A stretch of 64,000 nucleotides of DNA, taken from NCBI GenBank assembly GCA_963806975.1, contig CAWEAK010000022.1, positions 68,529 to 132,528 on the forward strand. The letters are read 5' to 3'. Below, in pieces: positions 9,236-60,381 of this stretch; positions within the stretch are counted from its first letter, which is position 1, and each line of letters starts with the position of its first letter. The position numbers and the translations under genes are program-made. The notes under the pieces were generated by a model. The model had not been told where the DNA came from, did not search any database, and was given only the letters and a program-made list of their open reading frames with translations. The DNA is from an uncultured Spirochaetota bacterium. GTDB taxonomy: Bacteria; Spirochaetota; Brevinematia; Brevinematales; JAOACQ01.

Positions 9236-9350
9236 TAAAATTTTGAGGCTTTTATGAACTTCGGGATATTATCATATATCATCGGCGGAAGTTTCGGCTT
9301 TTTTTTAACCATTCAATATCTGATCTTTTTCCTTTTAATGCTCAATAAAA

Positions 9351-10787
9351 ATGAAATTAAAGGATCCAAAGAGGTATCTTTTATATATAATATTTATTGG
9401 TTTATTCATTATTTTATCCAGTGTTTTCGGTTATTTATCCTTTTTTACAGAAAACGGATTCTATAGTATATTGTTTAATAAATTAAAAATAATATGCGGA
9501 ATCTTTATATTGAATTTCTTTGTTATACTTCTCTATTATTTAATATTTAAGATTAGAAATATGAAATTTGTTGAAACAGATGAATATAAAAATAACAGTA
9601 AAAAATATCTGACGGTTTTTATAGGAATATCAATAATTTTCTCGATATTGATTTTTATATTGAGATTTACCTATCAGGAAAAGACTGCTTCTCATATTAT
9701 AATAATTCTTTCTTTTATCATATACCTTTTTTTAACAGGTCTAATCGGATACTCGGCTTTCCGGAATATATTAATAAATGAGAGAGGTAAAATAACACCT
9801 TTTAACTTTTACCGGTACTATACAGTGCTTGGAAGCGGAATAGCGGCTATTATTCTTATTGTGGTAGAGATATCAATATCTTTTTTTACAAATAAAGAGA
9901 TATTAATTAAGACAGGATCTTATTATATGTACGGTATTTCATTGCTTTCCCTTGGCTTAAGTTTGAATCTTATTTTTGAATATCTGGAGGTTTTAACCCG
10001 TGCCAACGAAGCGAATAAAAAACTCTTGGATTTAAACAAACAGATGATGTATGAGGTAAGAACAGCTCAATCATTACAGATTTCATTACTTCCCCTGGAT
10101 AAACAGAAAATTATTCAAAACTTTATTGATATGGAAATTTCTTATATGCCAATGCAAAGCGTGGGTGGTGATTATTACGATTTTTACAAGCTTGACGACA
10201 AAAATATTCTTATTTTTCTTGGAGACGCTTCAGGACATGGAGTATATGCCGCTATGATCTGGGCAATTCTTAAAGTGGAGGTTGAAGAATTAATTGAAGA
10301 TAATCTATTTAACAACCTGTCACAGGCTTTCACACTATTAAATCAAAGAATAACAAGAATCCTTGAAAACACATATTCTTACGCAACATTATTTTCTCTT
10401 CTTATCAATCTTGAGAACAGGACAGTAAGTTATATTTCTGCCGGGCATCCGGACCAGTTTTATTTTTCGCTTCAGAATCAAACACTTAATAAGATTAGAA
10501 ATAAAAATCCCATTATAGGCATATTCCGGAATGCAAAATTCAATGCCGATACTATTGCCTGCGGTAATGGGGATATTATACTTATGTTCAGCGACGGGAT
10601 TGTTGAAGGCACAAATCCAGATGGAGAACTGCTTGGTAAGGAAAAATTGGAAGAATATTTTTCGGAAGCCTGTAAAACGGATGGAAATGCAACTATAATA
10701 ATAGGGGATATTCTGCTGAAATTGGAAGATTTTTTTGAAGGCACTATTCAGAAAGATGATAGAACACTTATGGTAATAAAACTTTGA
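9351..10787 (+). CDS. multi-pass membrane PP2C-type serine phosphatase (SpoIIE/RsbU family)
   Basis: About 7 N-terminal TM helices are followed by a PP2C domain: GGDYYDFY, GDASGHGVYAAM, FSDGIVE, DDRTLMVIKL. The true start may be 9254, via a frame change in an A5 run (see findings). Confidence 0.8.
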   Translation: MKLKDPKRYLLYIIFIGLFIILSSVFGYLSFFTENGFYSILFNKLKIICGIFILNFFVILLYYLIFKIRNMKFVETDEYKNNSKKYLTVFIGISIIFSILIFILRFTYQEKTASHIIIILSFIIYLFLTGLIGYSAFRNILINERGKITPFNFYRYYTVLGSGIAAIILIVVEISISFFTNKEILIKTGSYYMYGISLLSLGLSLNLIFEYLEVLTRANEANKKLLDLNKQMMYEVRTAQSLQISLLPLDKQKIIQNFIDMEISYMPMQSVGGDYYDFYKLDDKNILIFLGDASGHGVYAAMIWAILKVEVEELIEDNLFNNLSQAFTLLNQRITRILENTYSYATLFSLLINLENRTVSYISAGHPDQFYFSLQNQTLNKIRNKNPIIGIFRNAKFNADTIACGNGDIILMFSDGIVEGTNPDGELLGKEKLEEYFSEACKTDGNATIIIGDILLKLEDFFEGTIQKDDRTLMVIKL

Positions 10788-10805
10788 TTATTGAGGTAGC
10801 TAAAC

Positions 10806-11381
10806 ATGGATACTAAAAGCATTTTAATATGCGGGGTAGGTGGACAGGGTATAATCCTCGCTTCAGATATATTATCTTTTGCCCTTTTTAAAAAAGGTTT
10901 TGATGTTAAAAAAAATGAAATTCATGGTATGAGTCAAAGAGAAGGCTCTGTTGTTAGTTTTATAAGATACGGTGATAAGGTATATTCACCTGTTATTTCA
11001 CAGGATGAAGCGGATTTCATTTTAAGTTTTGAGAAACTCGAAACTCTTAGGAATTATAATTACTTAAAAAAAGGCGGCTGTGTTGTGATGAATAATCTTG
11101 AAATACCCCCGACGCCAGTCAGGTTAAGCTTGATGGAGTATCCAAAAGATATAGAATTGATGATTCAAAAAAAGGCAGAAATTTTAAAAATTGTTGATGC
11201 ATTTGAATCAGCAAAAAAGATCGGGAATGCAAAAGCGGTTAATGTCATACTTCTGGGAGTTTTATCGAATTATATTGAAAATATCGATAATTCCATCTGG
11301 GAAGATTCTATAAAAACTTTCGTAAAAGAAAGATATCAAGCCTTGAACTTAGAGGCTTTTGAGATTGGAAGGAGACTTTAG
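10806..11381 (+). CDS. iorB: indolepyruvate:ferredoxin oxidoreductase, beta subunit
   Basis: 191 aa PFOR-gamma-type domain with ILICGVGGQGIILASDIL. Confidence 0.8.
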   Translation: MDTKSILICGVGGQGIILASDILSFALFKKGFDVKKNEIHGMSQREGSVVSFIRYGDKVYSPVISQDEADFILSFEKLETLRNYNYLKKGGCVVMNNLEIPPTPVRLSLMEYPKDIELMIQKKAEILKIVDAFESAKKIGNAKAVNVILLGVLSNYIENIDNSIWEDSIKTFVKERYQALNLEAFEIGRRL

Positions 11382-11390
11382 GAGGTTTAT

Positions 11391-12710
11391 ATGAAAAGAA
11401 ATTTTCCACATCCGATATGGAATGAAGAAATGGAAACAATGGATAGGGAAGTTAGAAAATCACTTCAAACTTACCACTTAAAAGAGCTTGTCTGGTATGT
11501 TTATGAAAATGTGCCTTTTTACAAGAACAAATTTGATGAAATGAAAATTAAACCTGGTGATATCAAATCTATTGATGATATTACCCGTCTTACCTTTACA
11601 ACAAAGATGGATTTGCGGGATAATTATCCCTACAAGCTCTTTGCTGTTCCTATGGAACAGATTGTACGAATACATGCGTCGAGCGGAACAACTGGTAAAC
11701 CGACGGTCGTAGGTTATACAAAAGAAGATATTGAAATCTGGTCGGAAGTAATGGCAAGGTCACTAACCGCATCCGGCGTAACCAAGCATTCCATCGTACA
11801 GAATGCCTATGGTTACGGTCTTTTTACAGGCGGGCTTGGTATTCATTACGGAGTAGAAAAAATCGGGGCATCAGTTATCCCGATCTCAGGTGGAAATACG
11901 GCAAGACAGATCCTCATCTTAGAAGATTTTGGATCAGATATTTTAACGTGCACCCCTTCATATTCACTTTATCTTGCTGAAGAAGCAGAGAAGAAGGGGA
12001 TTAATTTCTCAAAACTTAAGTTAAAATATGGTATATTTGGTGCTGAACCCTGGACTGAGGCTATGCGTAAAGAAATAGAAAAAAGACTTCCGATTAAGGC
12101 CCTCAATATTTATGGGCTTTCAGAAATTATCGGCCCCGGTGTTGCAAACGAATGCCAGTTCCAGTGCGGACTCCATATTTTCGATGATCATTTCTATCCG
12201 GAGATAATAAATCCGATAACCGGTGAAAATGTAAAAGACGGCGAACAGGGAGAACTTGTCATAACAACCCTGACCAAGAAGGGAATTCCGCTTATCCGCT
12301 ACCGGACAAGAGACCTCACCCGCATAATACCTGGGGAATGCAAGTGTGGAAGGACACACCCCAGAATTGACAGGATTATGGGTAGAAGTGATGATATGTT
12401 AATAATCCGCGGCATCAATGTATTTCCTTCCCAGATAGAAGAGGTACTTGTTCAAATTGAAGAAGTTTCGCCCCATTACCAGTTAATCGTTGAAAGGGAA
12501 CACAATCTGGATGTCCTCACGGTTATGGTTGAGGTCAGTCCAAAGGTTTTCTCCGATGAAATAAAAGGGCTTGAAACCCTGGAAAAAAAGATTCTACACG
12601 AAATAGAAAATGTTTTAGGTATATCCGTCAAAGTAAAGCTGGTTGAGCCTAAAACAGTAGAGAGAAGCGAAGGAAAAGCGAAAAGGATCGTAGACAAACG
12701 GCAGATTTGA
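11391..12710 (+). CDS. paaK: phenylacetate-CoA ligase
   Basis: AMP-binding motif [11 protein letters not shown]. The overall PaaK layout is present ([23 protein letters not shown]). An AGGAGG RBS precedes the start. Confidence 0.85.
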
Positions 12711-12760
12711 AGATTACTACATAAACTTTTATTAGTCATTTACAAAAAAGGAGGGTTTTT

Positions 12761-13189
12761 ATGGTAAAACAGGTTTCTATTTTTCTTGAAAACAGGACAG
12801 GAAGGCTTCATGAAGTTACAAGCCTTTTATCGGAAAAAAACTTAAATATAAGGGCACTATCTGTCGCGGATACATCTGATTTCGGTATTTTAAGGCTTAT
12901 TGTTGACAATCCCGATAAGGCGATCGATGTTTTAAAGGATGCAAATTATACTGTCTCTTCTACCGATGTCGTTGCTGTGGAAGTTATGGACAAACCTGGC
13001 GGCCTTGCTAAAATCCTTGGGGTTTTCGACCAGAATAATATCAATGTTGAATATATGTATGCCTTTTTAGCGAAAATACCCGATAAAGCGGTTTTAATTT
13101 TCAGATTTGACGATAATAAGGCCGTAATAGAAAAGCTGAAGGGAAAGGATATAAAGCTTATTGAAGCGAAAGAACTTTACAGCCTTTAA
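12761..13189 (+). CDS. ACT domain-containing protein
   Basis: 142 aa with two ACT-like halves (VSIFLENRTGRL...; VAVEVMDKPGGLAKI). This is the usual partner of ior/paaK clusters in anaerobes. Confidence 0.75.
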   Translation: MVKQVSIFLENRTGRLHEVTSLLSEKNLNIRALSVADTSDFGILRLIVDNPDKAIDVLKDANYTVSSTDVVAVEVMDKPGGLAKILGVFDQNNINVEYMYAFLAKIPDKAVLIFRFDDNKAVIEKLKGKDIKLIEAKELYSL

Positions 13190-13372
13190 TAAACAAACTC
13201 CACAACCTTTTAATACAGAATAGTTCGACTAAGAAGTTTCATTTTTTATTATATCCAAATTTTGCTAAATCTTTTAAAGTTTAATAGAATAATCTAGTTA
13301 GATTTTGCTTTTTTGCTAAAATAAAAAGGAAGCATTATTCGTTATGAATTATAGTTATGGTAAGGTGGTATA

Positions 13373-14677
13373 ATGAAAAGTCCGCTTGTAAAAAACAGCC
13401 TCAGAGGTATCAAAATGAATATGTATAGAATTATTATAATAGCTACAGTACTTTCGGCTTTAGTTTCCTGCATGAATGCTCCCAGCAAGGGGGAATCTTT
13501 ATTACTGAAAAATCTTAATGATAAAGAGAAATCAGCTATTCTGAGCGATAAAGGCATTCGTATGTATAAGAATATGACCGATAAAGATGACGCTTCTTTA
13601 GCTCCAGATATCCGGGGTGTTTTTGAAGAATCTTTAAAATATGACCCGGCTAATAAAGATGCTGGAGATTATTTAACAAAAATCTCAAAATATGTAAATG
13701 AATATACCTCAAATAATATTAGCCTAGCTAAAAAGAACATGGAAAAAAAACAGGGTAGGACTGATGATGATGATTATTCGCTCTGTGTTTTACTTCAGAA
13801 AACTTACAAAGCAGATCCTTCAAACAAGGATGTCATTGCTTTTAAAAACAATACTAAAGATATACGTGAAAATCTTGCAAAAAAAATGCTTCTTGATGGA
13901 GATTCTCAATTAATCCTGGCAAAAAAAGATAAGACTAATCAGGAAAAAACATCTGTTTCTGCAATAGAGAAATTTGATAAAGCTATCTCTCTCGGGTCAT
14001 CTCTCGACGGTACATTATCATCAAAAAGAACTGAGGCTGTAAATATACTTTCAGTTATTATTGAAAAGAATATTGACGGAACAAAGAAATTAATTGCACA
14101 AAACAATTTCAAAGATGCTGAAACTAATATAAAAACATTAATTAAAAATAATGAATATTCGAATCATAAATATGATGATGCCCTTGTAAATCTTCAATAT
14201 GAGCTGTATTTTACATGGTCTAATAATCTTTTTTCATTAAATAAAATTGATTCGGCTTCTGAGAAAATTGATGCGGCATTAAAATTTAAACAGACTCCAG
14301 AAGCACAAAGTCTTCAGGCTAAAATTCAGGAAAAAAAGAATAAGGCCAATGTAGCCGGATCATTTAATTCATGGCTTTCTGAAATTGATGATCTTATCGC
14401 ACAAAAAGATTTTGTATCGGCTGTTAAAAAAATTAACAGTATTGAGGGAAAGGTCAAAGAGAAAGACAGGAAAAGCCAGCTGACAGATAGGAAAAATATT
14501 ATGAAATCACAGATTGATACTATTTATACTGAAGCCGTTACTGATTTTGTTAATGAGAATTATACAAATGCGATTAAGGGTTTTCAAAATATACTGGCAT
14601 TAGAACCAAATTATAAGGATGCTAAGAATTATCTCGAAAAGGCAAAATCAAAGACAAAAATATTGGAATCTTATTAA
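13373..14677 (+). CDS. hypothetical lipoprotein with C-terminal TPR-like repeats
   Basis: AAGGTGG RBS. Signal peptide ending ALVSC. The C-terminus YTNAIKGFQNILALEPNYKDAKNYLEKA is TPR-like. Confidence 0.4.
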   Translation: MKSPLVKNSLRGIKMNMYRIIIIATVLSALVSCMNAPSKGESLLLKNLNDKEKSAILSDKGIRMYKNMTDKDDASLAPDIRGVFEESLKYDPANKDAGDYLTKISKYVNEYTSNNISLAKKNMEKKQGRTDDDDYSLCVLLQKTYKADPSNKDVIAFKNNTKDIRENLAKKMLLDGDSQLILAKKDKTNQEKTSVSAIEKFDKAISLGSSLDGTLSSKRTEAVNILSVIIEKNIDGTKKLIAQNNFKDAETNIKTLIKNNEYSNHKYDDALVNLQYELYFTWSNNLFSLNKIDSASEKIDAALKFKQTPEAQSLQAKIQEKKNKANVAGSFNSWLSEIDDLIAQKDFVSAVKKINSIEGKVKEKDRKSQLTDRKNIMKSQIDTIYTEAVTDFVNENYTNAIKGFQNILALEPNYKDAKNYLEKAKSKTKILESY

Positions 14678-14753
14678 ATTTTCGCTTTCATTTCTATTTA
14701 TACCAACTTGCATTCAAAAAGAGTGTTAACGAACTTTTAAATGCTTACTTGGT

Positions 14754-14803
14754 ATTATACTGAGTTCTTTATTAATATTAATTTGATTACAACTCAGTAT
14801 AAT
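14754..14803. promoter_or_regulatory. 13-bp perfect inverted repeat (ATTATACTGAGTT-N24-AACTCAGTATAAT) 40 nt upstream of the next gene
   Basis: Read directly: 14754-14766 is the exact reverse complement of 14791-14803. The right arm contains TATAAT. Confidence 0.3.
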
Positions 14804-14843
14804 TGAAAAACAAGGGAAATTGTCTGATTTGAGAGGAGTTTTT

Positions 14844-15312
14844 ATGAACAATCTTGAAAAGGAAATACTGGAGTTAGAGATTCAGGAAAAAGAACTGCAA
14901 TTTAATTCATTTTCAAATAGCGATGCTCTGAATATCGGGTTGAAGCTGATCGAAAAAGCCCGCCAGGAAAAAAAATGCATTACTATTGACATAACAAGGT
15001 CCGGTCAGCAGTTATTCCATTATGCCTTTGAAGGCACTTCATCGGATAATGACCAGTGGATAATTCGAAAAAAATAATGTTGTACATCACTTTGCCAAGA
15101 GTTCTCTTCATGTCGGTCTTATCTTAGAGCGTGATAAAAAATCAATCGAAGAAATATTTTATATAAGTCCGATGGAATACTCCGCGCATGGAGGAGCATT
15201 CCCTATCATTATAAAAAATACGGGTGTAATAGGAGCTATAACGGTCTCCGGACTTTCTCAGAAAGAAGACCATGCTCTTGTGGTCAGCGTAATCAGGGAA
15301 TATCTCAAATAA
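14844..15312 (+). pseudogene. heme-degrading-domain/UPF0303-like protein, reading frame broken in an A7 run
   Basis: Frame 0 gives MNNLEKEILELE...[10 protein letters not shown] and stops at 15075-15077. The +1 frame continues [23 protein letters not shown]...[39 protein letters not shown] to 15312. Together they form one about 155-aa protein. GAGAGGA RBS lies before ATG 14844. Confidence 0.6.
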
Positions 15313-15341
15313 ATATGATTAATAGTTTTACAGGAGGGTTT

Positions 15342-15821
15342 ATGAGGAAACTTGGTTTATTGGTTTGTCTGATATTTTTATTAATATCCGGTTCTCTTTT
15401 TTCTAAAAGTGATACAATGGGAATGACCTCTGTAGGTATTTATGGTAATTTACTTGGCAGCGGAACCGGGACACTTGGAAGCGGTATTGGGGCAACAGTT
15501 AAATTTGGGAATTTTCCTGTAATTGGTGCCGAATGGATGTTTGGCAACTCTTCAAGAATTGCTGTCAGCTGTGATTATTGGGTTATCAATAACAAATTAT
15601 CAGGCCCTTTATGGTATTACCTTGGTCTTGGCGCTTATGCCGGATTTGGTTTAGGCGGACAGAGTGCAAGCATTGATTGTGGAGGAAGGATTCCAATTGG
15701 TATCCAGATCATGCCTTTAAAGAAATTTGAGATTTTTGCAGAGGTTGCGCCTCTTGTGGCAGTATTACCGACAATCAGCATAGGTTATTCTATTCGTGCC
15801 GGTTTTAGGATCCATTTTTAA
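15342..15821 (+). CDS. small Gly-rich outer-membrane beta-barrel-like protein
   Basis: GGAGGG RBS before ATG 15342. Signal peptide MRKLGLLVCLIFLLISGSLFS. Alternating G/aromatic strands, ending in RIHF. Confidence 0.4.
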   Translation: MRKLGLLVCLIFLLISGSLFSKSDTMGMTSVGIYGNLLGSGTGTLGSGIGATVKFGNFPVIGAEWMFGNSSRIAVSCDYWVINNKLSGPLWYYLGLGAYAGFGLGGQSASIDCGGRIPIGIQIMPLKKFEIFAEVAPLVAVLPTISIGYSIRAGFRIHF

Positions 15822-15831
15822 AAGCATACCT

Positions 15832-15862
15832 AGGAGCTGTCTAAAAATTTTAGGCAGCTCCT
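15832..15862. terminator. bidirectional intrinsic terminator hairpin between convergent genes
   Basis: AGGAGCTGTCTA-AAAATTT-TAGGCAGCTCCT forms a 12-bp stem with one G-U pair, followed by TTTCTTT. Confidence 0.6.
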
Positions 15863-15888
15863 TTCTTTAAAATACATATCGAATATTA

Positions 15889-17516: not shown

Positions 17517-17830
17517 TCATATTAACTGAAGATTATTATTAGTCCAGGATATTAAACCTTCATTTATATTATAAAACCGTCTGAAGTGAAATTCTTTAAA
17601 TACTTCAAGCGCTTCAGCCGAACGCCTTCCGCTTCGGCAGTAGATGCGGTATTCATTGTTTTTATTAAAATCCGGATTGTTTCGATTATCCTGGATAATC
17701 TGATAGGCTTCCTTTGCATTAATAGTTTGTATTATCTGTGTTTCATTTTTTACAGAAGTATCTTTTTATAACAATTGATGTAGAGAGTTGTTAACAGCAA
17801 TATGATTATAATAACTCCGGTTTTTCTCAT
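17517..17830 (-). pseudogene. rhodanese-like lipoprotein remnant (frame-shifted and internally shortened)
   Basis: The minus strand has an AGAGGT RBS, then ATG 17830 and MRKTGVIIIILLLTTLYINCYKK, then a stop. The adjacent frame continues DTSVKNETQIIQTINAKEAYQIIQDNRNNPDF..NKNNEYRIYCRSGRRSAEALEVFKEFHFRRFYNINEGLISW. It keeps the CRSGxRS active-site loop but lacks the usual about 40 aa between the first helix and the active site. Confidence 0.45.
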
Positions 17831-17853
17831 ATTTACCTCTATTTGACAAAAGC

Positions 17854-20359: not shown

Positions 20360-21976
20360 ATGAAAGATTTTATAATAGAGGGTATTGAACCAAAGGAGAG
20401 TCTCCCAAATGCCAGGATTATAAAAGACGGAAAATCCTATACTCTTCATTCGATTCAACCATTCAAGGAGGCGGAAAGAATTGCTTCAAAATTTAATCCT
20501 TCTATGAAGTGGGTTCTTATAGCCGGTTTTGGATTGGGTTATATACCTGAATATCTTTTAATAAATACCGAATACCAAATAATAATATTCGAACATACTG
20601 ATGAAATTATCGAATTTGCTAAAAAATCAGATAGAGTAAAAAAAATTATTAATAATAAACGTGTATTTCTTATTACAAATGATAGTGGAGAAATAATCCA
20701 GTTCCTTGATAATAATAATATTAAGGAACTCAATTTTTATATTCACAGGCCTTATTATGCCCTTTTCCATGATATTTATTCCAATCTTGAAGGGATCCTT
20801 ATTGCCTATCTTTCTAAAAAGCAGATCAACAAAGCAACATTGAAAAGGTTTCAAAAGGTCTGGCTGAAAAATATAATAAAAAATTCCCTTTTTTATTTTT
20901 CAATACCAGGGATTAAAAATATCCGGCATAATTTTCAAAACATACCAGCTGTGATTGTAGGAGCAGGTCCTTCACTTAGTAAAAACATTAATATTTTAAA
21001 AGAAGCACAGGATTATCTTATAATTATTTCAACTGATACTGCGCTTTCGATACTTTATAATAACGGTATCAAAGCGGACTTCGTAGTCAGTGTTGACCCG
21101 CAGGATAAAAATACTCTTTATCTTCTTTATTCTGAATACAAAGAAGCAACTTTGATATTGGACTCTGCGGCTTCTTTTATAAGTTTACTTAAATATAATC
21201 CTGCAAAGACTCTTTTTTTTGACAGTATTTTTCCTCTTTATGAGGAATTAATGCCATTCTGGAAAGAAAAGGGAACCCTTCTTTGCGGGGGATCGGTATC
21301 CACAACTGCCTTTGATTTTGCGCGTTTTTTAAACTGCAGCCCTATTATTTTTATAGGACAGGACCTGGCTTATTCTCAAAAACATACTCACTCGGAGGGA
21401 AGTATACTTGAAGAGTTCCTGTATTACAGAATCAACCGTTTTGAAACCTATGAAGCCTATAACGCTAAATCGCTTATATTTTCAGATAAAATTGAAGTTA
21501 AAGGCCTTGATGGTAATAAGGTGATTTCTGATAGAAAGTTTGTGAATTTTGTAGATTGGTTTAAAAAAGAAATAAATTTTACTCAGACTGAAGTGATTAA
21601 TGCAACCGAGGGCGGCGCTTATATTGAAGGCGCCAGTCATCAAACCCTGAAAAAAACTGTCGAAAATTTTTATAATGGCGGAAAAATCAATAAATCCTTT
21701 TCAATCGAACATGATTCTGAGAATCCTTATAATTTTATCATTTACCTTCAAGAAATTATTAATGGAATGGAACATTTAATATCCTATGGAAAAATGGCAT
21801 TTCAGGCTTCATTACGGGCATTGAGTTCTTTTCAACATAATAATATCAATCAGTATGAATTGAAAATAATGACAAGTTTCGATAGAGAATTGTTTAAATT
21901 AATAAAAGGGAAAAACAGCATCGCCCATTTTATCGAATTAACTATGCAGGAATCTATAAAAAATACTGGATGGTAA
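20360..21976 (+). CDS. motility-associated factor (Maf)-like protein, DUF115/MptE-like domain
   Basis: The core VIVGAGPSLSKNINILKEAQDYLIIISTDTALSILYNNGIKADFVVSVDPQ is typical of DUF115. GGAGGG RBS precedes the start. The ORF may continue to 22100 in another frame (see findings). Confidence 0.6.
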   Translation: MKDFIIEGIEPKESLPNARIIKDGKSYTLHSIQPFKEAERIASKFNPSMKWVLIAGFGLGYIPEYLLINTEYQIIIFEHTDEIIEFAKKSDRVKKIINNKRVFLITNDSGEIIQFLDNNNIKELNFYIHRPYYALFHDIYSNLEGILIAYLSKKQINKATLKRFQKVWLKNIIKNSLFYFSIPGIKNIRHNFQNIPAVIVGAGPSLSKNINILKEAQDYLIIISTDTALSILYNNGIKADFVVSVDPQDKNTLYLLYSEYKEATLILDSAASFISLLKYNPAKTLFFDSIFPLYEELMPFWKEKGTLLCGGSVSTTAFDFARFLNCSPIIFIGQDLAYSQKHTHSEGSILEEFLYYRINRFETYEAYNAKSLIFSDKIEVKGLDGNKVISDRKFVNFVDWFKKEINFTQTEVINATEGGAYIEGASHQTLKKTVENFYNGGKINKSFSIEHDSENPYNFIIYLQEIINGMEHLISYGKMAFQASLRALSSFQHNNINQYELKIMTSFDRELFKLIKGKNSIAHFIELTMQESIKNTGW

Positions 21977-39673: not shown

Positions 39674-40123
39674 TTAAGCTATGTAGTTAATGCTTGATTC
39701 AAGAAGACTGTTTATTCTTGAATCAGAAATTTCTTCTATCGAATTATTCTGTATATCTGTTATTCCATCAATTCCATTATCAGCAAGTTTTGAAGAGTTA
39801 TTATCATTTCCACCGTTGCCCTGGCTTCCGAGACTCACATTAAGATTAGTCAAATTAACGCCGGCTTGTTGCAAGGCGCGTTGAAGATCGCCAAGATTCT
39901 GATCAAAAATCATTTTTGCTTCAGGAGTAGAAACAACAATTTTTCCTATAAGCTGCCCGTCTTCAAGACTGAATTTCATACTCATTCTGCCGAGCTCCGG
40001 GGGAATAAGGTTCATCTTTAGTTCGCTTTTCCCATCTTTTAAAGTTACCAATGCTCTCCCAGTGATATTCTGCATAAGGGCTTCCAGATTTACCTTGCTA
40101 ATGCCGCTAGGCATAGCTTGCAT
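39674..40123 (-). CDS. fliK: flagellar hook-length control protein FliK, C-terminal Flg_hook-domain part
   Basis: LKMNLIPPELGRMSMKFSLEDGQLIGKIVVSTPEAKMIFDQNLGDLQRALQQAGVNLTNLNVSLG. The frame overlaps the upstream ORF by 17-65 nt, depending on which start is used. Confidence 0.7.
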   Translation of the reverse strand: MQAMPSGISKVNLEALMQNITGRALVTLKDGKSELKMNLIPPELGRMSMKFSLEDGQLIGKIVVSTPEAKMIFDQNLGDLQRALQQAGVNLTNLNVSLGSQGNGGNDNNSSKLADNGIDGITDIQNNSIEEISDSRINSLLESSINYIA

Positions 40124-41039
40124 ACTGCTTTGCCGGCAAACCCGATCCCTGAATACCAAAGTTTTGATCAAATTGTTTCGTATTGATAATGATGTCTTCT
40201 CTTTTTTTTAATGACTCACCTTCATTTTTATCAATAATTTTCTGAATAGAGTTGATAGTATTATTTTTTTCTAAAGCTGGTTCTGCTTTTTTAATATCTG
40301 CAAATTGTTTATTTGTTGATTTTTCTGAAGATAGTACCTTTGTTTCTTTTTCAGTCTTAACTTTTGATGATGTCTCTTCATACTGAAACGACCGCTTATC
40401 GATGATTTTAACTTTTTCCTGATTACTTTCTGTTTCATTTTTTTGTTCTGTTTGATTATTCATGTTTCTTTCCTGATTTTTTAAATCCTTTTGGAAAGTA
40501 CCTGTTTTAACAGTTTGCAAATTGTCTTTTTCTAACTCTATGGCATTAATATCATTTAACTTTTTATTAATAAGTGATAATAAATTATCAAAACTCTTTT
40601 GATTTCGAAAAGACTTATTTAACATGTCAGTTATTTTGTTTAATATTTCATTAAAAAAACTGGTAAGATCGATACTTACTTTTCCAAAATCAAGTTGCAT
40701 TTTTTCATTTTTTTTATTACTTTTTTCCATTAAGGCTGAAATTTTATCTATGATTGCTTTAATATTTTCAATTGAAATATTCTCCGCTACTTCAGGATTT
40801 TTTTCTAATTCTTTTATTTTATCTTTAATATTTTCTATTTTTTTTCTCAAGTCCTTATCATTTAAGGGTTTATTTTTTTTATCTTCATGAGTGGATATAT
40901 TCTGTAATGTTTCTTTAAAATTAGGGTCTCTATTGTTTAAAATATCAAAATTATTTTTATTATCTTGTTTTGAGACAGCTTCCTGTATGTTTTTTGAATT
41001 TTCCAGTGGTAAATATTGTATTACTTTATCCAAAGTCAT
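40107..41039 (-). CDS. fliK: K/E/N-rich low-complexity protein in the FliK N-terminal position (probable FliK N-terminal part)
   Basis: Lies immediately upstream of, and overlaps, the Flg_hook-domain ORF. Composition is typical of FliK N-terminal regions. GGAG lies before ATG 41039. Confidence 0.5.
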   Translation of the reverse strand: MTLDKVIQYLPLENSKNIQEAVSKQDNKNNFDILNNRDPNFKETLQNISTHEDKKNKPLNDKDLRKKIENIKDKIKELEKNPEVAENISIENIKAIIDKISALMEKSNKKNEKMQLDFGKVSIDLTSFFNEILNKITDMLNKSFRNQKSFDNLLSLINKKLNDINAIELEKDNLQTVKTGTFQKDLKNQERNMNNQTEQKNETESNQEKVKIIDKRSFQYEETSSKVKTEKETKVLSSEKSTNKQFADIKKAEPALEKNNTINSIQKIIDKNEGESLKKREDIIINTKQFDQNFGIQGSGLPAKQYASYA

Positions 41040-41270
41040 TTTACACTCCATGAAAATTAATTCTTGTTATGATTTTCGGTAGAATTAAAAAAAGTTTAAT
41101 AAAAAAGATGTTTAATTATTTTTTAATTTTTATTCTTAACGGTTTGAAATAGTTATTAATAATGTTTACTAAAATATAGGAATTTGTAATTCATTATTTT
41201 TATCTTTTTTTCGATATAATATTAATTCATTATCACTCACTTTGAATGTAATATACTATGGAGAGTCGGA

Positions 41271-51278: not shown

Positions 51279-52514
51279 CTATAAATTTAATTTTTTAATC
51301 CTATTAATGGCCTCTTCAATGTCTTCTTTTTTTCCAAAGGCGGTCATTCGAAAATAACCCTCGCCGTTCTTTCCGAAACCGACACCCGGTGTTCCTACTA
51401 TCTGAGCCTGATTAAGAAGAAAATCGAAGAATTCCCATGAAGAATATTTTTCTGGTATTTTTATCCAGATATAGGGGGAGTTTATCCCGCCGAAGCATTT
51501 GAGTCCTAGTGAAGAAATTCCCTCACGGATTATACCAGCGTTTAGTAGATAATAATTGATGATAGCCTGAGTTTCATTTCGGCCCTCTTGTGTAAAAACC
51601 TGGTAGGCGCCCTTTTGTATTATATACGCCACACCGTTAAACTTGGTTGACTGCCGCTGAAACCAAAGTTTTCTCACAGGATAAGCCTTTCCCTTTTTGT
51701 CGTAAGCTATTAACCCATTAGGGATTATTGTATAGGAACAGCGAGTTCCAGTAAATCCGGCAGTTTTTGAAAGGCTCCGGAATTCGATGGCAACTTCTTT
51801 TGCCCCTTCAATTTCAAAAATGCTGTGCGGTATATTTTTATCCCTGATAAAAGCCTCATAAGCGGCATCAAAAAGAATCAATGCTTTATTTTTTATAGCA
51901 TAATCCACCCAAACTTTCAGCTCTTCCCTTGTTAAAACCTGTCCTGTAGGATTGTTTGGGAAACAGAGATATATAAGATCAACGGATTGATCCGGTAGTT
52001 CGGGTTTAAAATTGTTCTTTTCATTACATGGTAGATATATGATATTTTCATATCTACCATCTATCAATCTGCCTGATCTTCCAGCCATAACATTACTGTC
52101 CAGATAAACCGGATATACAGGGTCGGTAATGGCTACTTTTATATCGTTAGAAAAAATTTCCTGAATATTGGCTGTATCTTCCTTTGCACCTGTCGAGATA
52201 AAAATCTCATCCGTAGAGATATTAATACCCCTGGTTTTAAAATCAGAATCACTTATTATATTCCTTAAAAATTCATAGCCTTCATCAGATTTATATCCTT
52301 TAAAAGTTATTAAATCAGACATTTCATCAACAGCCTTTTTCAATCCTTTGATTATCGAAGGGGGTAAAGGTTCCGTAACGTCTCCAATTCCAAGAGAAAT
52401 AATCTTGGCTCGAGGGTTTTTTAACTGAAATTCCTTAACCCTTCTGGCAGTTTCCGTAAATAAATAACTTCCTTGAAGATTTAAATAATTTTCGTTGATT
52501 CTGATCATTTTCAA
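51279..52514 (-). CDS. dapL: LL-diaminopimelate aminotransferase
   Basis: INENYLNLQGSYLF, LGIGDVTEPL, DPVYPVYLDSNVMAGR, LCFPNNPTG and SLSKTAGFTGTRC (PLP lysine). Confidence 0.85.
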   Translation of the reverse strand: MKMIRINENYLNLQGSYLFTETARRVKEFQLKNPRAKIISLGIGDVTEPLPPSIIKGLKKAVDEMSDLITFKGYKSDEGYEFLRNIISDSDFKTRGINISTDEIFISTGAKEDTANIQEIFSNDIKVAITDPVYPVYLDSNVMAGRSGRLIDGRYENIIYLPCNEKNNFKPELPDQSVDLIYLCFPNNPTGQVLTREELKVWVDYAIKNKALILFDAAYEAFIRDKNIPHSIFEIEGAKEVAIEFRSLSKTAGFTGTRCSYTIIPNGLIAYDKKGKAYPVRKLWFQRQSTKFNGVAYIIQKGAYQVFTQEGRNETQAIINYYLLNAGIIREGISSLGLKCFGGINSPYIWIKIPEKYSSWEFFDFLLNQAQIVGTPGVGFGKNGEGYFRMTAFGKKEDIEEAINRIKKLNL

Positions 52515-52560: not shown

Positions 52561-52627
52561 AACTGAAATGTTGAATAAAGTTAATTTATAACTTGCATTA
52601 AGACTTTTTTTGATCTTGAAGACATAA

Positions 52628-53488: not shown

Positions 53489-53492
53489 TTCA

Positions 53493-54266
53493 TTATCCTA
53501 TTTTTTTTAGAAATTCTCTTCCGAAATTAAGGTAAGCATCTGCTCCCTGACTTTTATAATCGTAATCGAATATTGCTACACCGTGGCTTGGAGCTTCAGA
53601 CAGTCTGACATTTCTTGGAATAATAGTATCATATACCTTATCCTTAAAATAATTTTTTACTTCTTCAACAACCTGTTTTGATAGGTTTGTTCTTGGATCA
53701 TACATTGTTATTAAAACTCCTTCAATTGCGATATTTTTATTAGGGCCGCTTTTTACAAGTTTGATGGCTTTTAATAGCTGAGCGAGACCTTCCATAGCAT
53801 AGAATTCGCTTTGCATTGGAATTAGAACACTATCAGCAGCAACAAGACCGTCTAAAGTTAAAAGGCCAAGTGAAGGAGGTGTATCAATCAAAATAAAATC
53901 GTAATCAGAAATTATCTCTGTAATAGCGTCTTTTAGGATATATTCCTTTCTTGAAGTATTTACCAGCTCAACTTGAGCTCCGGCAAGGTCAAGAGTAACT
54001 GGTACGATTCTTAAATAAGGGTATTTTGTTTCGATAATTACATTTTTCATCTTTTTTTGGCCTATAAGAACTTCATAAATACCATTACCTTGTCTTTCAT
54101 GAATATCAATACCAAGACCGCTGCAGGTATTCCCCTGAGGATCTATATCGATAAGAAGAGTTTTTTTTTGTGCATTGGATAAAAAAGCTGCAAGATTAAT
54201 GGCTGTAGTAGTTTTACCAACACCGCCTTTCTGATTTGCTATCACTATGGTTTTTGACATATACAC
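53493..54266 (-). CDS. parA: chromosome partitioning ATPase ParA/Soj
   Basis: Deviant Walker A NQKGGVGKTTT. The start lies 4 nt... upstream gene order is parA then parB on the same strand, 4 nt apart. Confidence 0.9.
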   Translation of the reverse strand: MYMSKTIVIANQKGGVGKTTTAINLAAFLSNAQKKTLLIDIDPQGNTCSGLGIDIHERQGNGIYEVLIGQKKMKNVIIETKYPYLRIVPVTLDLAGAQVELVNTSRKEYILKDAITEIISDYDFILIDTPPSLGLLTLDGLVAADSVLIPMQSEFYAMEGLAQLLKAIKLVKSGPNKNIAIEGVLITMYDPRTNLSKQVVEEVKNYFKDKVYDTIIPRNVRLSEAPSHGVAIFDYDYKSQGADAYLNFGREFLKKIG

Positions 54267-54367
54267 CCCGTTTTATAATAACCATTCTAATAGATAAAGA
54301 TTATACAAGGCTTTTTATAAAAACTCAAAATTGATCACACTCAATAAGTATAGATATTTTGATAATA

Positions 54368-55117
54368 TCATTCTTTCATTTTAACATATACCGCGGATGT
54401 TCCATTATTATCCTGATATTTTAATTCAAAATAGATCGTATTAGCTTTTATAAGTTTTACCAGTTGAGTATAGCCGTAAGAGCGGGGGTCAAAACCCGGG
54501 TCCAACTGGCGAAGATAAATGCCCATAGTTGATAGATGAGCCCATCCGTCTTCCTGTACAGCCATTTCAAAAGCCTCTTTTAATAAAAGAAGAGGATTTG
54601 CATTTTCTTCTGTTTTTGAATCAGTAATTTTTTTATGAGTTTTTGGCTTGGCTGCAGACTCCAATTCCTGTAAATTTTCTGTATAAATAAAAACATTACT
54701 GGCGTTTACAAAAGCTTTTGGTGTCTTTTTCTCGCCGATTCCAATTACGAACATCCCGGCCTCTCTGATTCTGGTTGCGAGGCGAGTATAATCACTATCA
54801 CTGGAAACGATACAAAAACAATTTACCCAGCCGCTGTGCAAAATATCCATTGCATCAATAATCATAGCGCTGTCAGTTGCATTTTTACCAATTGTATAGC
54901 GAAATTGCTGAATAGGCTGTATGGCAAAATTATTTAATACTTCTTTCCAGCCGTTCATATTCGCGGTTGTCCAGTCACCATAAATACGGCGGATTGTAAT
55001 TGACCCGTATTTACCTGTTTCCAATAACATTTTGCTGATTAGGGCGGGTCTTGCATTGTCTCCATCAATTAATAGTGCAATTTTATACATCAAATTATCC
55101 AAAAATTGTTCCGGCAT
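54368..55117 (-). CDS. NYN (LabA/DUF88-like) nuclease-fold domain protein with C-terminal OST-HTH/LOTUS domain
   Basis: ALLIDGDNA...IRRIYGDWT...IVSSDSDYTRLATRIREAG forms the NYN domain. C-terminal WAHLSTMGIYLRQLDPGFDPRSYGYTQLVKLIKA is LOTUS-like. GAGGAGG RBS precedes ATG 55117. Confidence 0.7.
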   Translation of the reverse strand: MPEQFLDNLMYKIALLIDGDNARPALISKMLLETGKYGSITIRRIYGDWTTANMNGWKEVLNNFAIQPIQQFRYTIGKNATDSAMIIDAMDILHSGWVNCFCIVSSDSDYTRLATRIREAGMFVIGIGEKKTPKAFVNASNVFIYTENLQELESAAKPKTHKKITDSKTEENANPLLLLKEAFEMAVQEDGWAHLSTMGIYLRQLDPGFDPRSYGYTQLVKLIKANTIYFELKYQDNNGTSAVYVKMKE

Positions 55118-55274
55118 TTCAACCTCCTCAAATTTTTTATACTTAATTATGACTTCTTTTATATGTACTTTCAAAAATTATGTATATATTATTCCTTATA
55201 ATACTGAAAAAATTTTGATATGAATTATAAAATCCTTTATACTAAATTCCATTAATATATCTGGAGAATAAATA

Positions 55275-56144
55275 ATGCAAAAATATATTGAAAAAGCTAG
55301 GATAATTATGGAAGCGCTTCCTTATATTAAGGAATTTTATGGAAAGACAATTGTTATCAAATATGGCGGAAATGCCATGGATGATCCGGGACTTAAATTA
55401 AGGGTTATACAAGATTTTGTATTATTAAAACTTATAGGGATGAATATAATAGTTGTGCATGGTGGCGGACCGCATATTACTAATCTTATGGAAAGACTGG
55501 GTAAAAAGGCTGTATTCGTTGAAGGACATCGTGTTACCGATAAAGAAACTATGGAAATAACAGAAATGGTTTTAAGTGGTTTATTAAATAAGGAAATTGT
55601 TGCTATTTTAAATTCAAACGGGGGAAAGGCTGTTGGTATATCTGGAAAGGATGACAACCTGATTGTTGCTGAAAAGAAAGAAGATAAAAGCGGTAAAGGC
55701 TTGGATTTCGGGCTGGTTGGAGAAATTATCAGTATAAATCCTGGTTTACTTTTATCCCTGATAAAAGATGGTTATATTCCCGTAATATCTCCAGTAGCAA
55801 TAGGAGAAGACGGCAATACTTATAATGTTAATGCCGACACTGCGGCAGGAGAAATAGCAGAAAGTGTAAAAGCTGCAAAACTTATATATCTAACGGATAT
55901 TAAGGGAATTTACAGCGATTTAAATGATGAAACAACCTTTCTTGATAGTATAAACGAGACCGATGTGATAAAAATGAAAAAAACCGGCCTCATTTCCAGC
56001 GGGATGCTGCCCAAAATAGACTCTGCAGTAAAAGCTATAAAAAACGGTGTCGAAAAAGTCCATATCATTGACGGGAGGGTTGAACATTCAGTGTTACTGG
56101 AACTTCTTACGGATGCCGGTATCGGAACAGAAATAAAGGCTTAA
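55275..56144 (+). CDS. argB: acetylglutamate kinase
   Basis: IVIKYGGNAM, VVHGGGP and NVNADTAAGE. Confidence 0.9.
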   Translation: MQKYIEKARIIMEALPYIKEFYGKTIVIKYGGNAMDDPGLKLRVIQDFVLLKLIGMNIIVVHGGGPHITNLMERLGKKAVFVEGHRVTDKETMEITEMVLSGLLNKEIVAILNSNGGKAVGISGKDDNLIVAEKKEDKSGKGLDFGLVGEIISINPGLLLSLIKDGYIPVISPVAIGEDGNTYNVNADTAAGEIAESVKAAKLIYLTDIKGIYSDLNDETTFLDSINETDVIKMKKTGLISSGMLPKIDSAVKAIKNGVEKVHIIDGRVEHSVLLELLTDAGIGTEIKA

Positions 56145-56150
56145 CTTTAT

Positions 56151-57390
56151 TCAGCTTAAATAACTCGCATTGATTTTAACATAATCGCAGGTTAGATCGC
56201 TCGTCCAGAGATAGAATTCCTTTTTACCGATTCCCAGGTCAATTGTAATTTGTATTTCAGGTGAAAGCATTTCTCCGCCCGCTTTGCTTTCATTAGCTTT
56301 GTTAACATCACCATTTTCAAATATTAACAGATCGTTAATATATAATTTTAACATTAAAAGCTCAAGCTTGGCTCCGGAATATCCCACAGCGGCCAATATT
56401 CTCCCCCAATTTGGACTCTGTCCAAAAATAGCCGACTTAACAAGATATGAATCAGCAACAGCCCTTGCTGTTTTTTCGGCATCGCTGGATGTAAAAGCAT
56501 TTTTTATATTTATATGTATAATTTTGCTTGCTCCTTCTCCGTCTTTAACGATAAGTTTGCCAATACTCTGACATATTTTTATTAAAACCTGCTTAAAAAT
56601 ATGATACGAATCATCTTCAGTAATAATTTTATCATTTTCAGCCATTCCGTTTGCCATCAAAAAAACACTGTCATTGGTGCTTGTATCGTTATCCACGCTT
56701 ATGCGGTTAAATGAGAGGCTTATAGCCTCTGTTAATGCTTTAATTAGCAGTTCTTTTGCCATCACAATGTCAGTTGTAATAAATACTAGCGATAGTAGCA
56801 TGAAGCTCTGACGGAATAGTCTCCATATCCGGTTTTATCATACCGGCTCCCTTTGCTGTTGCTCCGATCCTGACATGCTTTCCGCTTAACTCGAATTCAT
56901 AAGCTACATTCTTCATTTTTTTATCCGTTGTCATTATGGCATTAGAAAAATTTCTATAATCATTTTCTGTGCGAATCAATCTGCATACCTTTTCAATTCC
57001 ATATTCAACCCTGTCCATTATGAGTTTACGTCCTATTACTCCGGTTGAGGCAACCATTACGGAACCGTCAGAAAGAGCAAGATACTGCTCAACCAATTGA
57101 GCCATTCTAAGAGCATTTTCCTTACCGGTTATTCCAGTAAGGCAGTTGGCGTTGCCGCTATTGACTACAATTGAAGATATTTTATTTTTTGATCGTGATA
57201 TATCAAGGAGAACCGGCGCCGCTTTTACTTTATTTTTTGTGAAAGCACAGGCTATATCGCAGGGTAATTCAGACAAAACCATTCCAAGATCTTTATACCC
57301 TCCATCTTTTAAACCACAGGAAATTCCCGTCGCCCGGAATCCTTTTGGCTCGGTTATTCCTCCCTCTAGGACTCTTAATTGAAGTTCCAT
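56151..57390 (-). pseudogene. argJ: bifunctional ornithine acetyltransferase/N-acetylglutamate synthase ArgJ, reading frame broken at the self-cleavage motif
   Basis: The upstream ORF ends ...AKGAGMIKPDMETIPSELHATIASIYYN and then stops. The downstream ORF begins MLLSLVFITTDIV... The two overlap at 56770-56801 in different frames. Together they make an about 410-aa ArgJ. Confidence 0.8.
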
Positions 57391-57467
57391 AAAGACTCCT
57401 GTTTTAGCACTCTTCTTCATTTATTCAGAACTATTATTGAAGTTTTTAACAGCATGTCCATCAATAC

Positions 57468-57512
57468 CTTTCACAAAATTATCACTAACTGAAAAAAGGA
57501 TTTTTGTGAAAG
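57468..57512. other. 11-bp perfect inverted repeat CTTTCACAAAA-N23-TTTTGTGAAAG between recA and argJ
   Basis: Read directly from the sequence. Confidence 0.4.
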
Positions 57513-57547
57513 CTGTGAGCTTCCACAAACTCCTATCTCCCATTTTT

Positions 57548-58619
57548 TCATCCATGTTCTACAGCGCCACTTTCCTTTGTAGCCTCTGAACCGGATCCAA
57601 AACTTGATGGAATTGCCCCTTCGATTAATTTTTTACGTACCTGTTCTTCAATTTTTTTCAGAAACTGTTGTTTATCTTCCATTTCCTTCAACAGGTTCTC
57701 TCTGCCCTGTGCTATTCTCTCTTCGCCGTAAAAATACCAGGTCCCTTTTCTTTGAATAACACCACATTCGATGGCAGCATCAATTAAACACCCGGTTTTA
57801 GATATTCCTTTACCAAAGATAATGTCAAATTCAGCCTGTTTAAAGGGAGCGGCCATTTTATTTTTTACTACTTTAGCTTTTACCCGGTTGCCGTAATTAT
57901 CCTCTCCTTTTTTTAATGCTTCCAATTTGCGTATTTCAATACGGATAGATGAATAAAACTTCAGCGCCATTCCTCCAGTAGTGGTTTCAGGATTTCCATA
58001 AACCACTCCTATCTTCATCCTTATCTGATTTATGAAAATAACGGCTGTCCTGGTTTTGCTTATTATGGCCGTGAGTTTACGAAGAGCCTGGGACATAAGT
58101 CTTGCCTGCATACCCATCACAGAATCACCCATATTTCCATCGATTTCTGATTTTGGCACAAGAGCAGCAACAGAATCAATCACAATTAATTCAACTGCTC
58201 CACTTCTGACAAGGCTTTCAACAATTTCCAGGGCTTGTTCACCTGTATCAGGTTGTGAGATAAGAAGATTTTTTATATCAATACCGATATTTTCAGCATA
58301 GATGGGGTCTAGTGCATGTTCTGCGTCGATAAAGGCGCATGTTCCCCCCGCCTTTTGAGCTTCTGCTATAATACTTAAAGTTAGAGTAGTTTTCCCTGAA
58401 GATTCAGGACCATAAATCTCTGTTACCCTCCCATAAGGAATACCGCCTATTCCTAAAGCTAGATCAAGAGTAAGGGCTCCTGTGGAAATTACAGGAACAT
58501 CGGTAACTTTTGGCCTATCACCCAGCTTCATAATATGATCCCTTGCCGTATTCTTTTTCGATCTGTGCTATCGCCACCTGTAATGCCTTTTCTTTCTCTT
58601 TATCCGCTAATTCAGCCAT
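57548..58619 (-). CDS. recA: recombinase RecA, with an apparent 1-nt frame disruption after codon about 28
   Basis: The main ORF (57548-58531) carries GPESSGKTT and the full RecA core. The expected N-terminus [28 protein letters not shown] is encoded from ATG 58619 in another frame and runs into a stop. Confidence 0.9.
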
Positions 58620-58700
58620 AAAAACCTGCCTTTATAAATTTCTAAGAATATTATACAACAATTTTTATAAATATGAAAACAAAGCATAATTCTCTTTAGT

Positions 58701-60381
58701 TTATGCAGGATTATTCGGAAGCTGAATATAAAAAGTTGTTTCTTTATCCCCTGTTTCAAACCAAATGTTACCGTTATGTTCAAGGATAATTCGCTCTGCA
58801 ATTGCAAGACCTATGCCACTTCCATGCTCTTTAGTTGTAAAATAAGGTTCAAAAATTTTATCCTGAATCTCTAATGGAATTCCTTTTCCTTTATCAGAAA
58901 TAGATATAATAAAATTATTTTCAGATGAATATCCAGATAAAGTTATCTGTTTTTCACTCTCCACGCTTGATTCGACGGCATTATTCACAAGGTTTATTAT
59001 GACCTGTTTAATTTGACTCTCGTCAAAATTAAGAAAAAAATCTTTCAGATTGATATTCCGATTTATTGTAAATGCAGGATAAGCGTTTTGAAAAAAATCA
59101 GCAAGTTCATTCAATAGAATAATAATATCCCTATTCTCAAGTTTTGGATTTGGCAGCCGTGCAAACTGAGAAAATTCATTTACTAATTTTTCAAGCCTTT
59201 TAGTTTCATTAATTATTGTGGAAGTTGTTTTATTCAAAATTTTCTGAAATTCATTAGGTTTAGATTCATAAGCATATTGAAGACGTTCCGCAGATAATTT
59301 TATAGGAGTCAGTGGGTTCTTTATTTTCATGCGCCAGCCTGCGGGCCATTTCCTGCCAAGCCTCCATACGCTCCATACTTTTTATCTGCCTGTAAGCCGT
59401 TTTTAGCTTAGTTGCCATGGAATTAAAGTTATATGAGAAATCTCCAATCTCATCATGGGTATGAACATGTACTTTATAATCCAGATTACCATCAGCTATT
59501 AATTTTGTACCTTTTACTATCTCTTCAATTGGGACAGTAATATTCCTAGCCACAAAAAAACTCATGAAAAACACACCTACCAATATAGGAACAGTAAGTA
59601 TAAAGATTGAAAGAATTGATACTGGTAGGATATATCTTTTTAATAACCTTAATTGGTATAGAGTATCTGCATTATTTTTTAAATTAAGAAATGCATCAAT
59701 TAATTCTTTTTTCATATTGTTCGCATAAAAAAGATTTCCATTCTTCATAATTACAATGTATGGAACTTCACCAAGATAAAAAAACTTATTTTTTGTGTCA
59801 TTAAAATACTTGATTATATTACTTTGAGACAGCATTACTGATTTTTTGATCTCCTCATCGGTGTTTAATTTGAAAGATATTAAATCATTGTTAATAGTAA
59901 ATATTATAGGAAAGTTCTGAGAATTTAGTTTTAAGTTTGATGTCAGATAGTTTTCAAAATCATTTTTATTCATATTTATCATATTTTTGTAATTGTCAAG
60001 CAGGTTATCTGCAACACTTCGTTCTTTATCAATAAATGTATTTTCTATCAAAAATATCAGATAGAACATTAAAGCGCCGAAAATAATAACAAAACCGAGG
60101 GTTGAAAGTAGAAAGTATGAGGTAATTCTAGCCCGCAGGTTGTAACCGCGAGCTCCTCTTCTCTGAAAGATAAATAGTTTAAAGAAATTGAATAATAACC
60201 ACAAACCAATAAAAGAAGCTATAAAAAATATAGTTGGTATAGTAGTTTTAAGAGTAGTATTTGCCTGAACGGAATATAACCAGCCATACATTCCGGCGGC
60301 AGATAAAATAGACAATATTGTAATAAGAAAAAATATGATGACATTAAGTCTCTTACTCATTGATAATACCATTCTTATCAA
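58701..60381 (-). pseudogene. NtrY-like sensor histidine kinase (TM-HAMP-HisKA-HATPase), frame broken inside the H-box
   Basis: The upstream ORF ends ...MARRLAHENKEPTDSY. The downstream ORF starts MKIKNPLTPIKLSAERL. Joined, they read RRLAHEIKNPLTPI, a canonical H-box. HATPase motifs NLVNNAVES, DKGKGI and GSGIGLAIAE are present. Confidence 0.8.

Follow-up and report, generated by a model that had tools for sequence, protein, structure and literature searches.

Frame breaks in a draft genome of an uncultured Brevinematales spirochaete: very probably single-base consensus errors, partly linked to short palindromic motifs

In recently host-restricted bacteria, such as Mycobacterium leprae, Sodalis, and Salmonella Typhi, pseudogenes accumulate with numerous nonsense mutations, larger deletions, and IS insertions, and essential genes are spared. 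Frameshifts are also known from low-coverage nanopore bins, in which short-read polishing was needed to remove them (Sereika et al. 2022, PMC9262707). Nanopore errors at specific motifs are additionally caused by DNA modification in bacteria, and the published methylation-linked errors are mainly substitutions (PMC6591954, PMC11610573, PMC11610603).

The draft genome of an uncultured Brevinematales spirochaete analysed here shares features with each of these systems. Like nanopore-only low-coverage MAGs (PMC9262707; IDEEL-type gene truncation), it carries one-base indels that split about one in eight genes, are private to the assembly, affect every functional class, and are more frequent near the ends of its long contigs. 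Unlike the classic errors of nanopore MAGs, which are centred on homopolymers, the breaks are not significantly enriched in homopolymers, and many of the insertions are in sequence without repeats. As in the case of modification-induced basecalling errors, the breaks are concentrated at short palindromes typical of restriction-modification systems (CTAG/GCTAG and TTCGAA), assemblies of the same run disagree at these motifs, and the genome has several DNA methyltransferases. However, the published modification cases are mostly substitutions, whereas here one-base insertions or deletions occur beside the motif, in a genome for which we infer both the modification and the sequencing platform. As in host-restricted bacteria accumulating pseudogenes, many conserved genes are interrupted, a few of them by several lesions, but nearly every lesion is a shift by one base, and at least one lesion is absent from a second assembly of this run.

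The draft genome (58% complete, 28 contigs) is the only one retained for its species in the genome collection (GTDB 232), and the protein collection contains no other genome of this species. A RecA search of the genome contigs returned only distant matches, with at most 68% identity. In exact-protein look-ups, 7 out of 12 proteins were without a match, but at least one of these misses was due to a different choice of start codon rather than to the sequence itself, and the miss rate therefore has no value as evidence. We considered whether the low completeness could be an effect of frameshifts and rejected this, as only about half of the genes of a same-genus genome, G001, have any counterpart in the draft genome; the bin is thus truly partial. 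The sites in the window, which is the whole analysed stretch of 64,000 nucleotides, were compared with G001 by tblastn and frameshift-aware alignment, and also with Pfam. The contigs of G001 have Flye-style names (ENA analysis ERZ25039480), and G001 comes from the same run as the draft genome. For the genome-wide survey, 328 orthologues were compared with two relatives, G001 and G014, which gave 304 kb of aligned genes; 41 breaks were placed by alignment, and 44 frameshift sites were used in the statistics. Logan contigs of run ERR11594402 served as a second, independent assembly.

Eight frame disruptions had been predicted in the window. Six of them proved to be single-base frame breaks, all in the +1 direction, and a seventh, the rhodanese gene, is disrupted as well (Table 1). 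The predicted loss of the Maf-like C-terminus at the A6 run was not borne out: the open reading frame is colinear with a 574-aa open frame of G001 up to residue 572, that is, to within 2 residues of its end. The seven broken genes that could be checked in G001 are all single open reading frames there; the breaks are private to the draft assembly.

Table 1. Genes of the window in which a frame disruption had been predicted, with the outcome of the comparison (positions counted from the first letter of the window).
Gene	Position	Strand	State	Basis
PP2C/SpoIIE-type phosphatase	9254..10787	+	split by +1 break, T4 run 9376-9379	G001 526-aa orthologue aligns in two frames
UPF0303/HbpS-like	14820..15310	+	split by +1 break at 15064-15074 (TTCGAA then A7)	
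Rhodanese lipoprotein remnant	17520..17830	-	-1 break, A5/T5 run 17763-17767, and N-terminal domain half lost	
MptE-like (Maf)	20360..21976	+	intact; no disruption at A6 run 21958-21963	
fliK	39674..41051	-	split by +1 break at 40102-40110 (GCCTAGCGG)	
argJ	56151..57420	-	split by +1 break at 56786-56792 (ATCGCTAG)	
recA	57548..58618	-	+1 break at 58532-58537 (GGATCATATT)	
HAMP/HisKA/HATPase sensor kinase	58701..60381	-	split by +1 break, 4-base run 59324-59327	

The break in the PP2C gene is real, as residues 17-58 of the G001 orthologue align in frame 2 and residues 71-526 in frame 3, but it had been placed at the A5 run 9347-9351, about 30 nt from the actual site, and the window frame runs unbroken through that run. 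The remaining five single-base breaks were confirmed. In the UPF0303 gene, the Pfam match (PF03928) is split at the predicted A7 run: positions 1-55 are read in one frame and positions 58-127 in the frame shifted by +1. In argJ, the break directly follows the HAT motif with the autocleavage Thr, and in the sensor kinase, where it is at the predicted T4 run, it falls within the H-box (HE.KNPLT). Codons 1-28 of recA are out of frame with the rest, and the break site, TCATAT, contains no homopolymer. The rhodanese gene was also correctly predicted to be a remnant: besides the frame break at the T5 run, about 34 residues are absent, and only positions 51-101 of the 102 in the Pfam domain are left, while its orthologue in G001 is a 149-aa open frame. 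Judging from its sequence, it has truly degenerated, and it is the only clear exception among the broken genes of the window, which are otherwise most likely intact in the organism. As a real lesion, it counts against a reading of all disruptions as pure error.

A genome-wide comparison of disruption density, proposed with the original prediction, revealed breaks throughout the genome. Of the 328 orthologues, 40 (12%) are broken by 44 frameshifts, at a rate of about 1.45 per 10 kb that rises roughly threefold, to 3.8 per 10 kb, in the terminal 5 kb of contigs. All but one of the 41 breaks placed by alignment were modelled as a one-base shift, with 24 breaks in the +1 and 16 in the -1 direction. 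Credible nonsense codons in the aligned genes numbered only 2, against the 44 frameshifts (22:1). Among the broken genes are nusG, nadE, pfp, ahcY, metH, htpG, and deaD, and G001 has private breaks of its own in fusA (two), rpsG, and FTHFS. Thus, the lesions appear random as to gene function, affecting essential genes and being private to each assembly. A weaker point in this respect is contig C18, where about 28 kb with rpoB, rpoC, and ribosomal-protein genes contain only one break (nusG) against about four expected (P ~0.1). A frameshifted rpoB N-terminus, suggested by an HMM match, was rejected, as rpoB aligns to G001 in one frame. Genes with several lesions (ligD, ku, and a TldD/PmbA-like gene, including one TGG-to-TAG change) are few, non-essential, and mostly located near contig ends.

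The original prediction had seen a bias of the disruptions to homopolymers. At the 44 break sites genome-wide, no significant enrichment in homopolymers was found: runs of at least 4 bases occur within 5 nt of 27% of the sites, as compared to 19.5% of random coding positions, and runs of at least 5 bases within 5 nt of 9%, as compared to a background of 6.4%. Most breaks lie outside long homopolymers. The contexts that are enriched are two short palindromes. TTCGAA is present within 8 nt of 4 of the 44 sites, with 0.08 expected (P ~1e-6), and CTAGC at 3 of the 44, with 0.07 expected. About 9% of the TTCGAA sites in the compared genes bear a break, and in several cases the assembly has TTTCGAA at a place where one T less would suit the reference protein. 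The two motifs, CTAG and TTCGAA, account for only about 16-18% of the break sites. The genome encodes at least four N6/N4 DNA methyltransferases. A reference-free screen of same-strand ORF junctions (843 intervals) gave only a weak enrichment (TTCGAA 3.1% and CTAG 3.4%, as compared to 1.8%); natural gene junctions dominate these intervals, and the screen was left out of the verdict.

The Logan contigs retrieved cover only two of the break sites, in fliK and argJ, and both are discordant with the MAG; over 19.4 kb, only 6 loci differ at all, and these include the two break sites. One contig (L163) aligns with 9,765 nt of the window and departs from it only in one SNP and in a C at 40110; with one C fewer at this position, its fliK is a single intact open reading frame of 454 aa. 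Another (L133) disagrees with the MAG where argJ is broken (56790 and 56798) and by an indel at the CTAG at 57367, and its argJ is still out of frame. Two Logan contig ends lie at CTAG sites (58309 and 59546) and one, by arithmetic, at the TTCGAA at 51347; other ends are beside an A6 run and in a T run.

The frame breaks are very probably uncorrected single-base consensus errors of a long-read MAG, partly linked to sequence motifs, and not the result of gene decay. Sequencing error rather than decay had been proposed from the start, and this part of the proposal is supported; its homopolymer signature is not, the enriched contexts being TTCGAA and CTAG. Contig naming and error behaviour indicate that the data are most likely Flye-assembled nanopore reads of run ERR11594402, in which the organism was probably present at modest coverage. 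Part of the errors would be systematic, lying at or beside the palindromes CTAG/GCTAG and TTCGAA. Modified bases in restriction-modification motifs may disturb basecalling, in which case errors bound to these motifs would be expected, and base modification is presumably the cause of the motif-linked errors. The remaining errors would be scattered low-coverage indels, commoner near contig ends. Most likely, the organism itself has intact copies of recA, argJ, fliK, nusG, and other genes broken in the assembly.

Real reductive decay, in which about 12% of the genes, recA, argJ, fliK, and nusG among them, would be recent pseudogenes, is unlikely. The true remnant of the rhodanese gene fits it, as do the several lesions each in ligD, ku, and the TldD/PmbA-like gene, with the change to TAG, the relative sparing of the essential rpoBC/ribosomal block, and the argJ gene that is out of frame in the Logan contig too. 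The last three also count against the reading as error, as do the small share of breaks sited at motifs and the contrast between these indels and the substitutions of published methylation-linked errors. However, the independent Logan assembly of the run has an unbroken fliK, and the break sites coincide with discrepancies between assemblies and with motifs at which k-mer contigs end. With 22 frameshifts to each credible nonsense codon, the lesions are far from the mixed spectrum expected of decay, and the excess of breaks near contig ends argues in the same direction. Judged by median identity to the orthologue, both halves of the broken genes seem about as conserved as intact genes (67% and 71%, respectively), genes such as nusG, nadE, and pfp are affected, and the sister genome of the same run is frameshifted in two genes that cannot be dispensed with, fusA and rpsG. 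We consider it quite improbable that the breaks are real, that about 12% of the genes, including recA, argJ, fliK, and nusG, are being inactivated in a free-living population of Brevinematales, that CTAG and TTCGAA are genuine hot spots of indel formation, caused for instance by repair at restriction-modification motifs, and that intact and broken alleles coexist in the sample.

Heterogeneity within the population or phase variation, with intact and shifted alleles coexisting and each assembler taking a different one, would account for the mismatch between the two assemblies of one run, MAG and Logan contigs, precisely at the break sites in fliK and argJ. It is nevertheless very unlikely, as the break sites are tracts of 1-7 bases in housekeeping genes, and not long tracts in surface or restriction-modification genes. 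Moreover, CTAG and TTCGAA are where the differences cluster and where Logan contigs break, which points to ambiguous base calls rather than alleles. Programmed +1 frameshifting or another kind of recoding used to express the broken genes is exceedingly improbable: the uniform direction of the six clean breaks in the window and the excess of +1 breaks genome-wide would suit it, but 16 breaks are -1, the orthologues in both relatives are single open reading frames with no conserved shift sites found, the shift sites lack a common motif or stop context, and fliK is unshifted in the other assembly of the same run.

Read as consensus errors, the breaks are a data-quality flag: about one in eight genes would be falsely split in the draft genome, so pseudogene counts, pathway reconstructions, and calls of a "missing" recA or argJ in this lineage should not be relied on before the assembly has been polished. 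Motif-linked indel errors can survive long-read polishing. Their position beside CTAG/GCTAG and TTCGAA, and not in homopolymers, hints at the DNA-modification motifs of this uncultured spirochaete.

We checked the genes suspected of disruption in the window by Pfam, by three-frame translation and by tblastn searches with the open frames of a genome of the same genus (G001). Five of them, encoding a PP2C/SpoIIE phosphatase, FliK, ArgJ, RecA and a HAMP/HisKA kinase, were single open frames in G001 but lay in two frames in the window, as the original prediction would have it. For the sixth, a UPF0303/HbpS-like gene, a G001 copy was looked for and none was found, and the split was judged by Pfam (model positions 1-55 in one frame and 58-127 in the other). 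Similarly, the Pfam model of argJ was matched at positions 2-169 in one frame and 170-377 in the other, and the first 28 codons of recA were out of frame with the rest. In each of these six genes, the assembly carries one surplus base. The rhodanese gene, whose Pfam match covers only positions 51-101 of 102 and whose orthologue in G001 has an open frame of 149 aa, is a true remnant. Of the eight disruptions claimed from the sequence, these six clean breaks and the remnant stood. The one proposed at the C-terminus of a Maf/MptE-like gene was false, as this gene is undisrupted and aligns colinearly with the G001 orthologue all the way to the end, and that in the PP2C gene had been assigned to the wrong run. 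The ArgJ proteins of both genomes carry an insertion of 6-7 residues (ETIPSE / ETISPGG; window 56800-56830) directly N-terminal to (L)HAT, the conserved autocleavage motif.

Frame changes confirmed in the window, with their sequence context
Gene	Strand	Position in window	Frame change	Context
PP2C/SpoIIE phosphatase		9376-9379	+1	T4 run; A5 run 9347-9351 read through in frame
UPF0303/HbpS-like			+1	sits on TTCGAA
Rhodanese	minus		-1	A5 run; about 34 residues lost
fliK		40102-40110	+1	GCCTAGCGG, non-homopolymer
argJ		56786-56792	+1	ATCGCTAG, non-homopolymer
recA			+1	TCATAT, non-homopolymer
HAMP/HisKA kinase			+1	

The genome under study (G000) is a draft of 2.46 Mb in 28 contigs, with ~37% G+C, a reported completeness of 58% and contamination of 0.6%. 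The named homologues of its RecA belong to Brevinematales, phylum Spirochaetota (Brevinema, Thermospira). G001 (4.9 Mb, 20 contigs) was the nearest of the genomes compared, with a RecA identity of 91% and a DNA identity of about 72-78%. In another genome of the family (G008, 4 contigs), recA is also split.

Disruption was found to extend genome-wide when open frames from G001 (about 600 kb) and from a complete relative, G014 (400 kb), were searched against the whole of G000: 40 of 328 orthologous genes were split by 44 frame changes over 304 kb aligned (1.45 per 10 kb). The rate was 3.8 per 10 kb less than 5 kb from a contig end and about 1.2 elsewhere. A frameshift-aware alignment placed 41 breaks, modelled as +1 (24), -1 (16) or +2 (1), and only two in-frame stop codons looked like credible nonsense changes. 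The broken genes, which include those for NusG, NAD synthetase, PPi-phosphofructokinase, AdoHcy hydrolase, methionine synthase, HtpG and a DEAD-box helicase, were about as conserved as the intact ones (median identity 67% vs 71%) and longer (median 385 aa vs 285 aa), as would be expected if breaks fall at random. In the reverse comparison, G001 showed about 0.7-1.0 private breaks per 10 kb, with two in fusA and one each in rpsG and the formate-tetrahydrofolate ligase gene (G001:C18:3121-5701; L161:1353-2985), none of which is broken in G000; G001 is thus an imperfect reference too.

The bias to homopolymers, proposed originally as the signature of error, was not borne out. No enrichment over background was seen at the 44 break sites for runs of at least four (27% vs 19.5%) or at least five bases (9% vs 6.4%). 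Instead, breaks were enriched near TTCGAA (4/44 sites, 0.08 expected, P about 1e-6), CTAG (3/44, 0.16 expected) and CTAGC (3/44, 0.07 expected), and about 9% of the TTCGAA sites within the compared genes bear a break. Residue-level inspection revealed a recurrent surplus base directly 5' of TTCGAA in nusG, a kinase gene, a cobT-like gene and an aldolase-like gene, and directly 5' of GCTAG in argJ and fliK. Both motifs are rarer than expected in G000: CTAG occurs 703 times where base composition would predict roughly 8,000 (about 12-fold under-represented) and TTCGAA 415 times (about 2-fold), a scarcity that, judged from sequence, would fit restriction-site avoidance. Genes for at least four N6/N4 DNA methyltransferases are present in G000, along with a C5 methyltransferase fragment; one N6/N4 gene (G000:C10:150542-151247) is itself divided in two by a stop or frame change that falls between Pfam positions 81 and 85. 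Additionally, junctions between same-strand ORFs are strongly enriched in the 6-mers CACGAG (18/125 sites), ACGAGC, AGACAC and CGTGTC, hinting at a multi-copy element whose ORFs overlap, perhaps an IS family.

Both genomes derive from run ERR11594402 (for G001, ENA analysis ERZ25039480), which contains two congeneric Brevinematales populations, about 75% identical in their DNA, binned as separate MAGs. The Flye-style contig names of the G001 record, such as "contig_41693", point to a long-read metagenome assembly. Exact-protein look-ups retrieved three contigs of the independent Logan k-mer assembly of this run that overlap the window, and across 19.4 kb only six loci distinguish them from the MAG. 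The break sites that they cover, fliK and argJ, are both points of disagreement between the two assemblies built from those reads. In one Logan contig the C at 40110 is absent, leaving a single intact 454-aa FliK; in another, argJ has substitutions at 56790 and 56798 and an extra indel at CTAG 57367. Logan contigs end at CTAG sites (58309, 59546) and, by coordinate arithmetic, at TTCGAA 51347; further ends lie next to an A6 run, within a T run and at AGATCT. Since a k-mer assembly stops where reads lack consistent 31-mers, G000 reads appear to be ambiguous at the break-bearing motifs. The 8.4 kb of Logan sequence compared for G001 matched its MAG exactly, which suggests better read support for that genome. 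At the HPr kinase C-terminus (62263-62269), three one-base gaps and one mismatch cluster between the MAG and Logan, a net in-frame difference of 3 nt (predicted proteins of 317 vs 312 aa).

There is a small probability that some lesions in G000 mark true pseudogenes. The rhodanese gene is a genuine remnant, neither assembly has argJ in frame, and the rpoBC/ribosomal block, where about four breaks are expected, contains one (P about 0.1). Several lesions each are found in a TldD/PmbA-like gene close to the end of contig C18 and in ligD and ku, a heavily damaged NHEJ pair with several frame changes at the very start of C9 (G000:C9:3-2957). In ligD, TGG is changed to TAG within CCTAGG; the ku-ligD damage reflects either a real pseudogene pair or a poorly supported contig end. 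Lineage-wide decay is supported by none of these observations.

Six lines of evidence jointly point to consensus error and not biology, in line with the original preference for error over decay: the breaks are private and nearly always of a single base, nonsense changes hardly occur, central genes are affected in both of the co-assembled genomes, contig ends show an excess of breaks, specific motifs are enriched for them, and the independent assembly is discordant at break sites and has fliK intact. Published observations agree with this: nanopore bins below about 40-fold coverage require short-read polishing against frameshifts (PMC9262707), and motif-specific nanopore errors arise from bacterial DNA modification (PMC6591954, PMC11610573, PMC11610603). 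We infer a nanopore platform and base modification in G000, although published modification-linked errors are mostly substitutions, whereas the G000 breaks are almost all one-base frame changes. The feature is very probably an assembly artefact, and as such of little biological interest.
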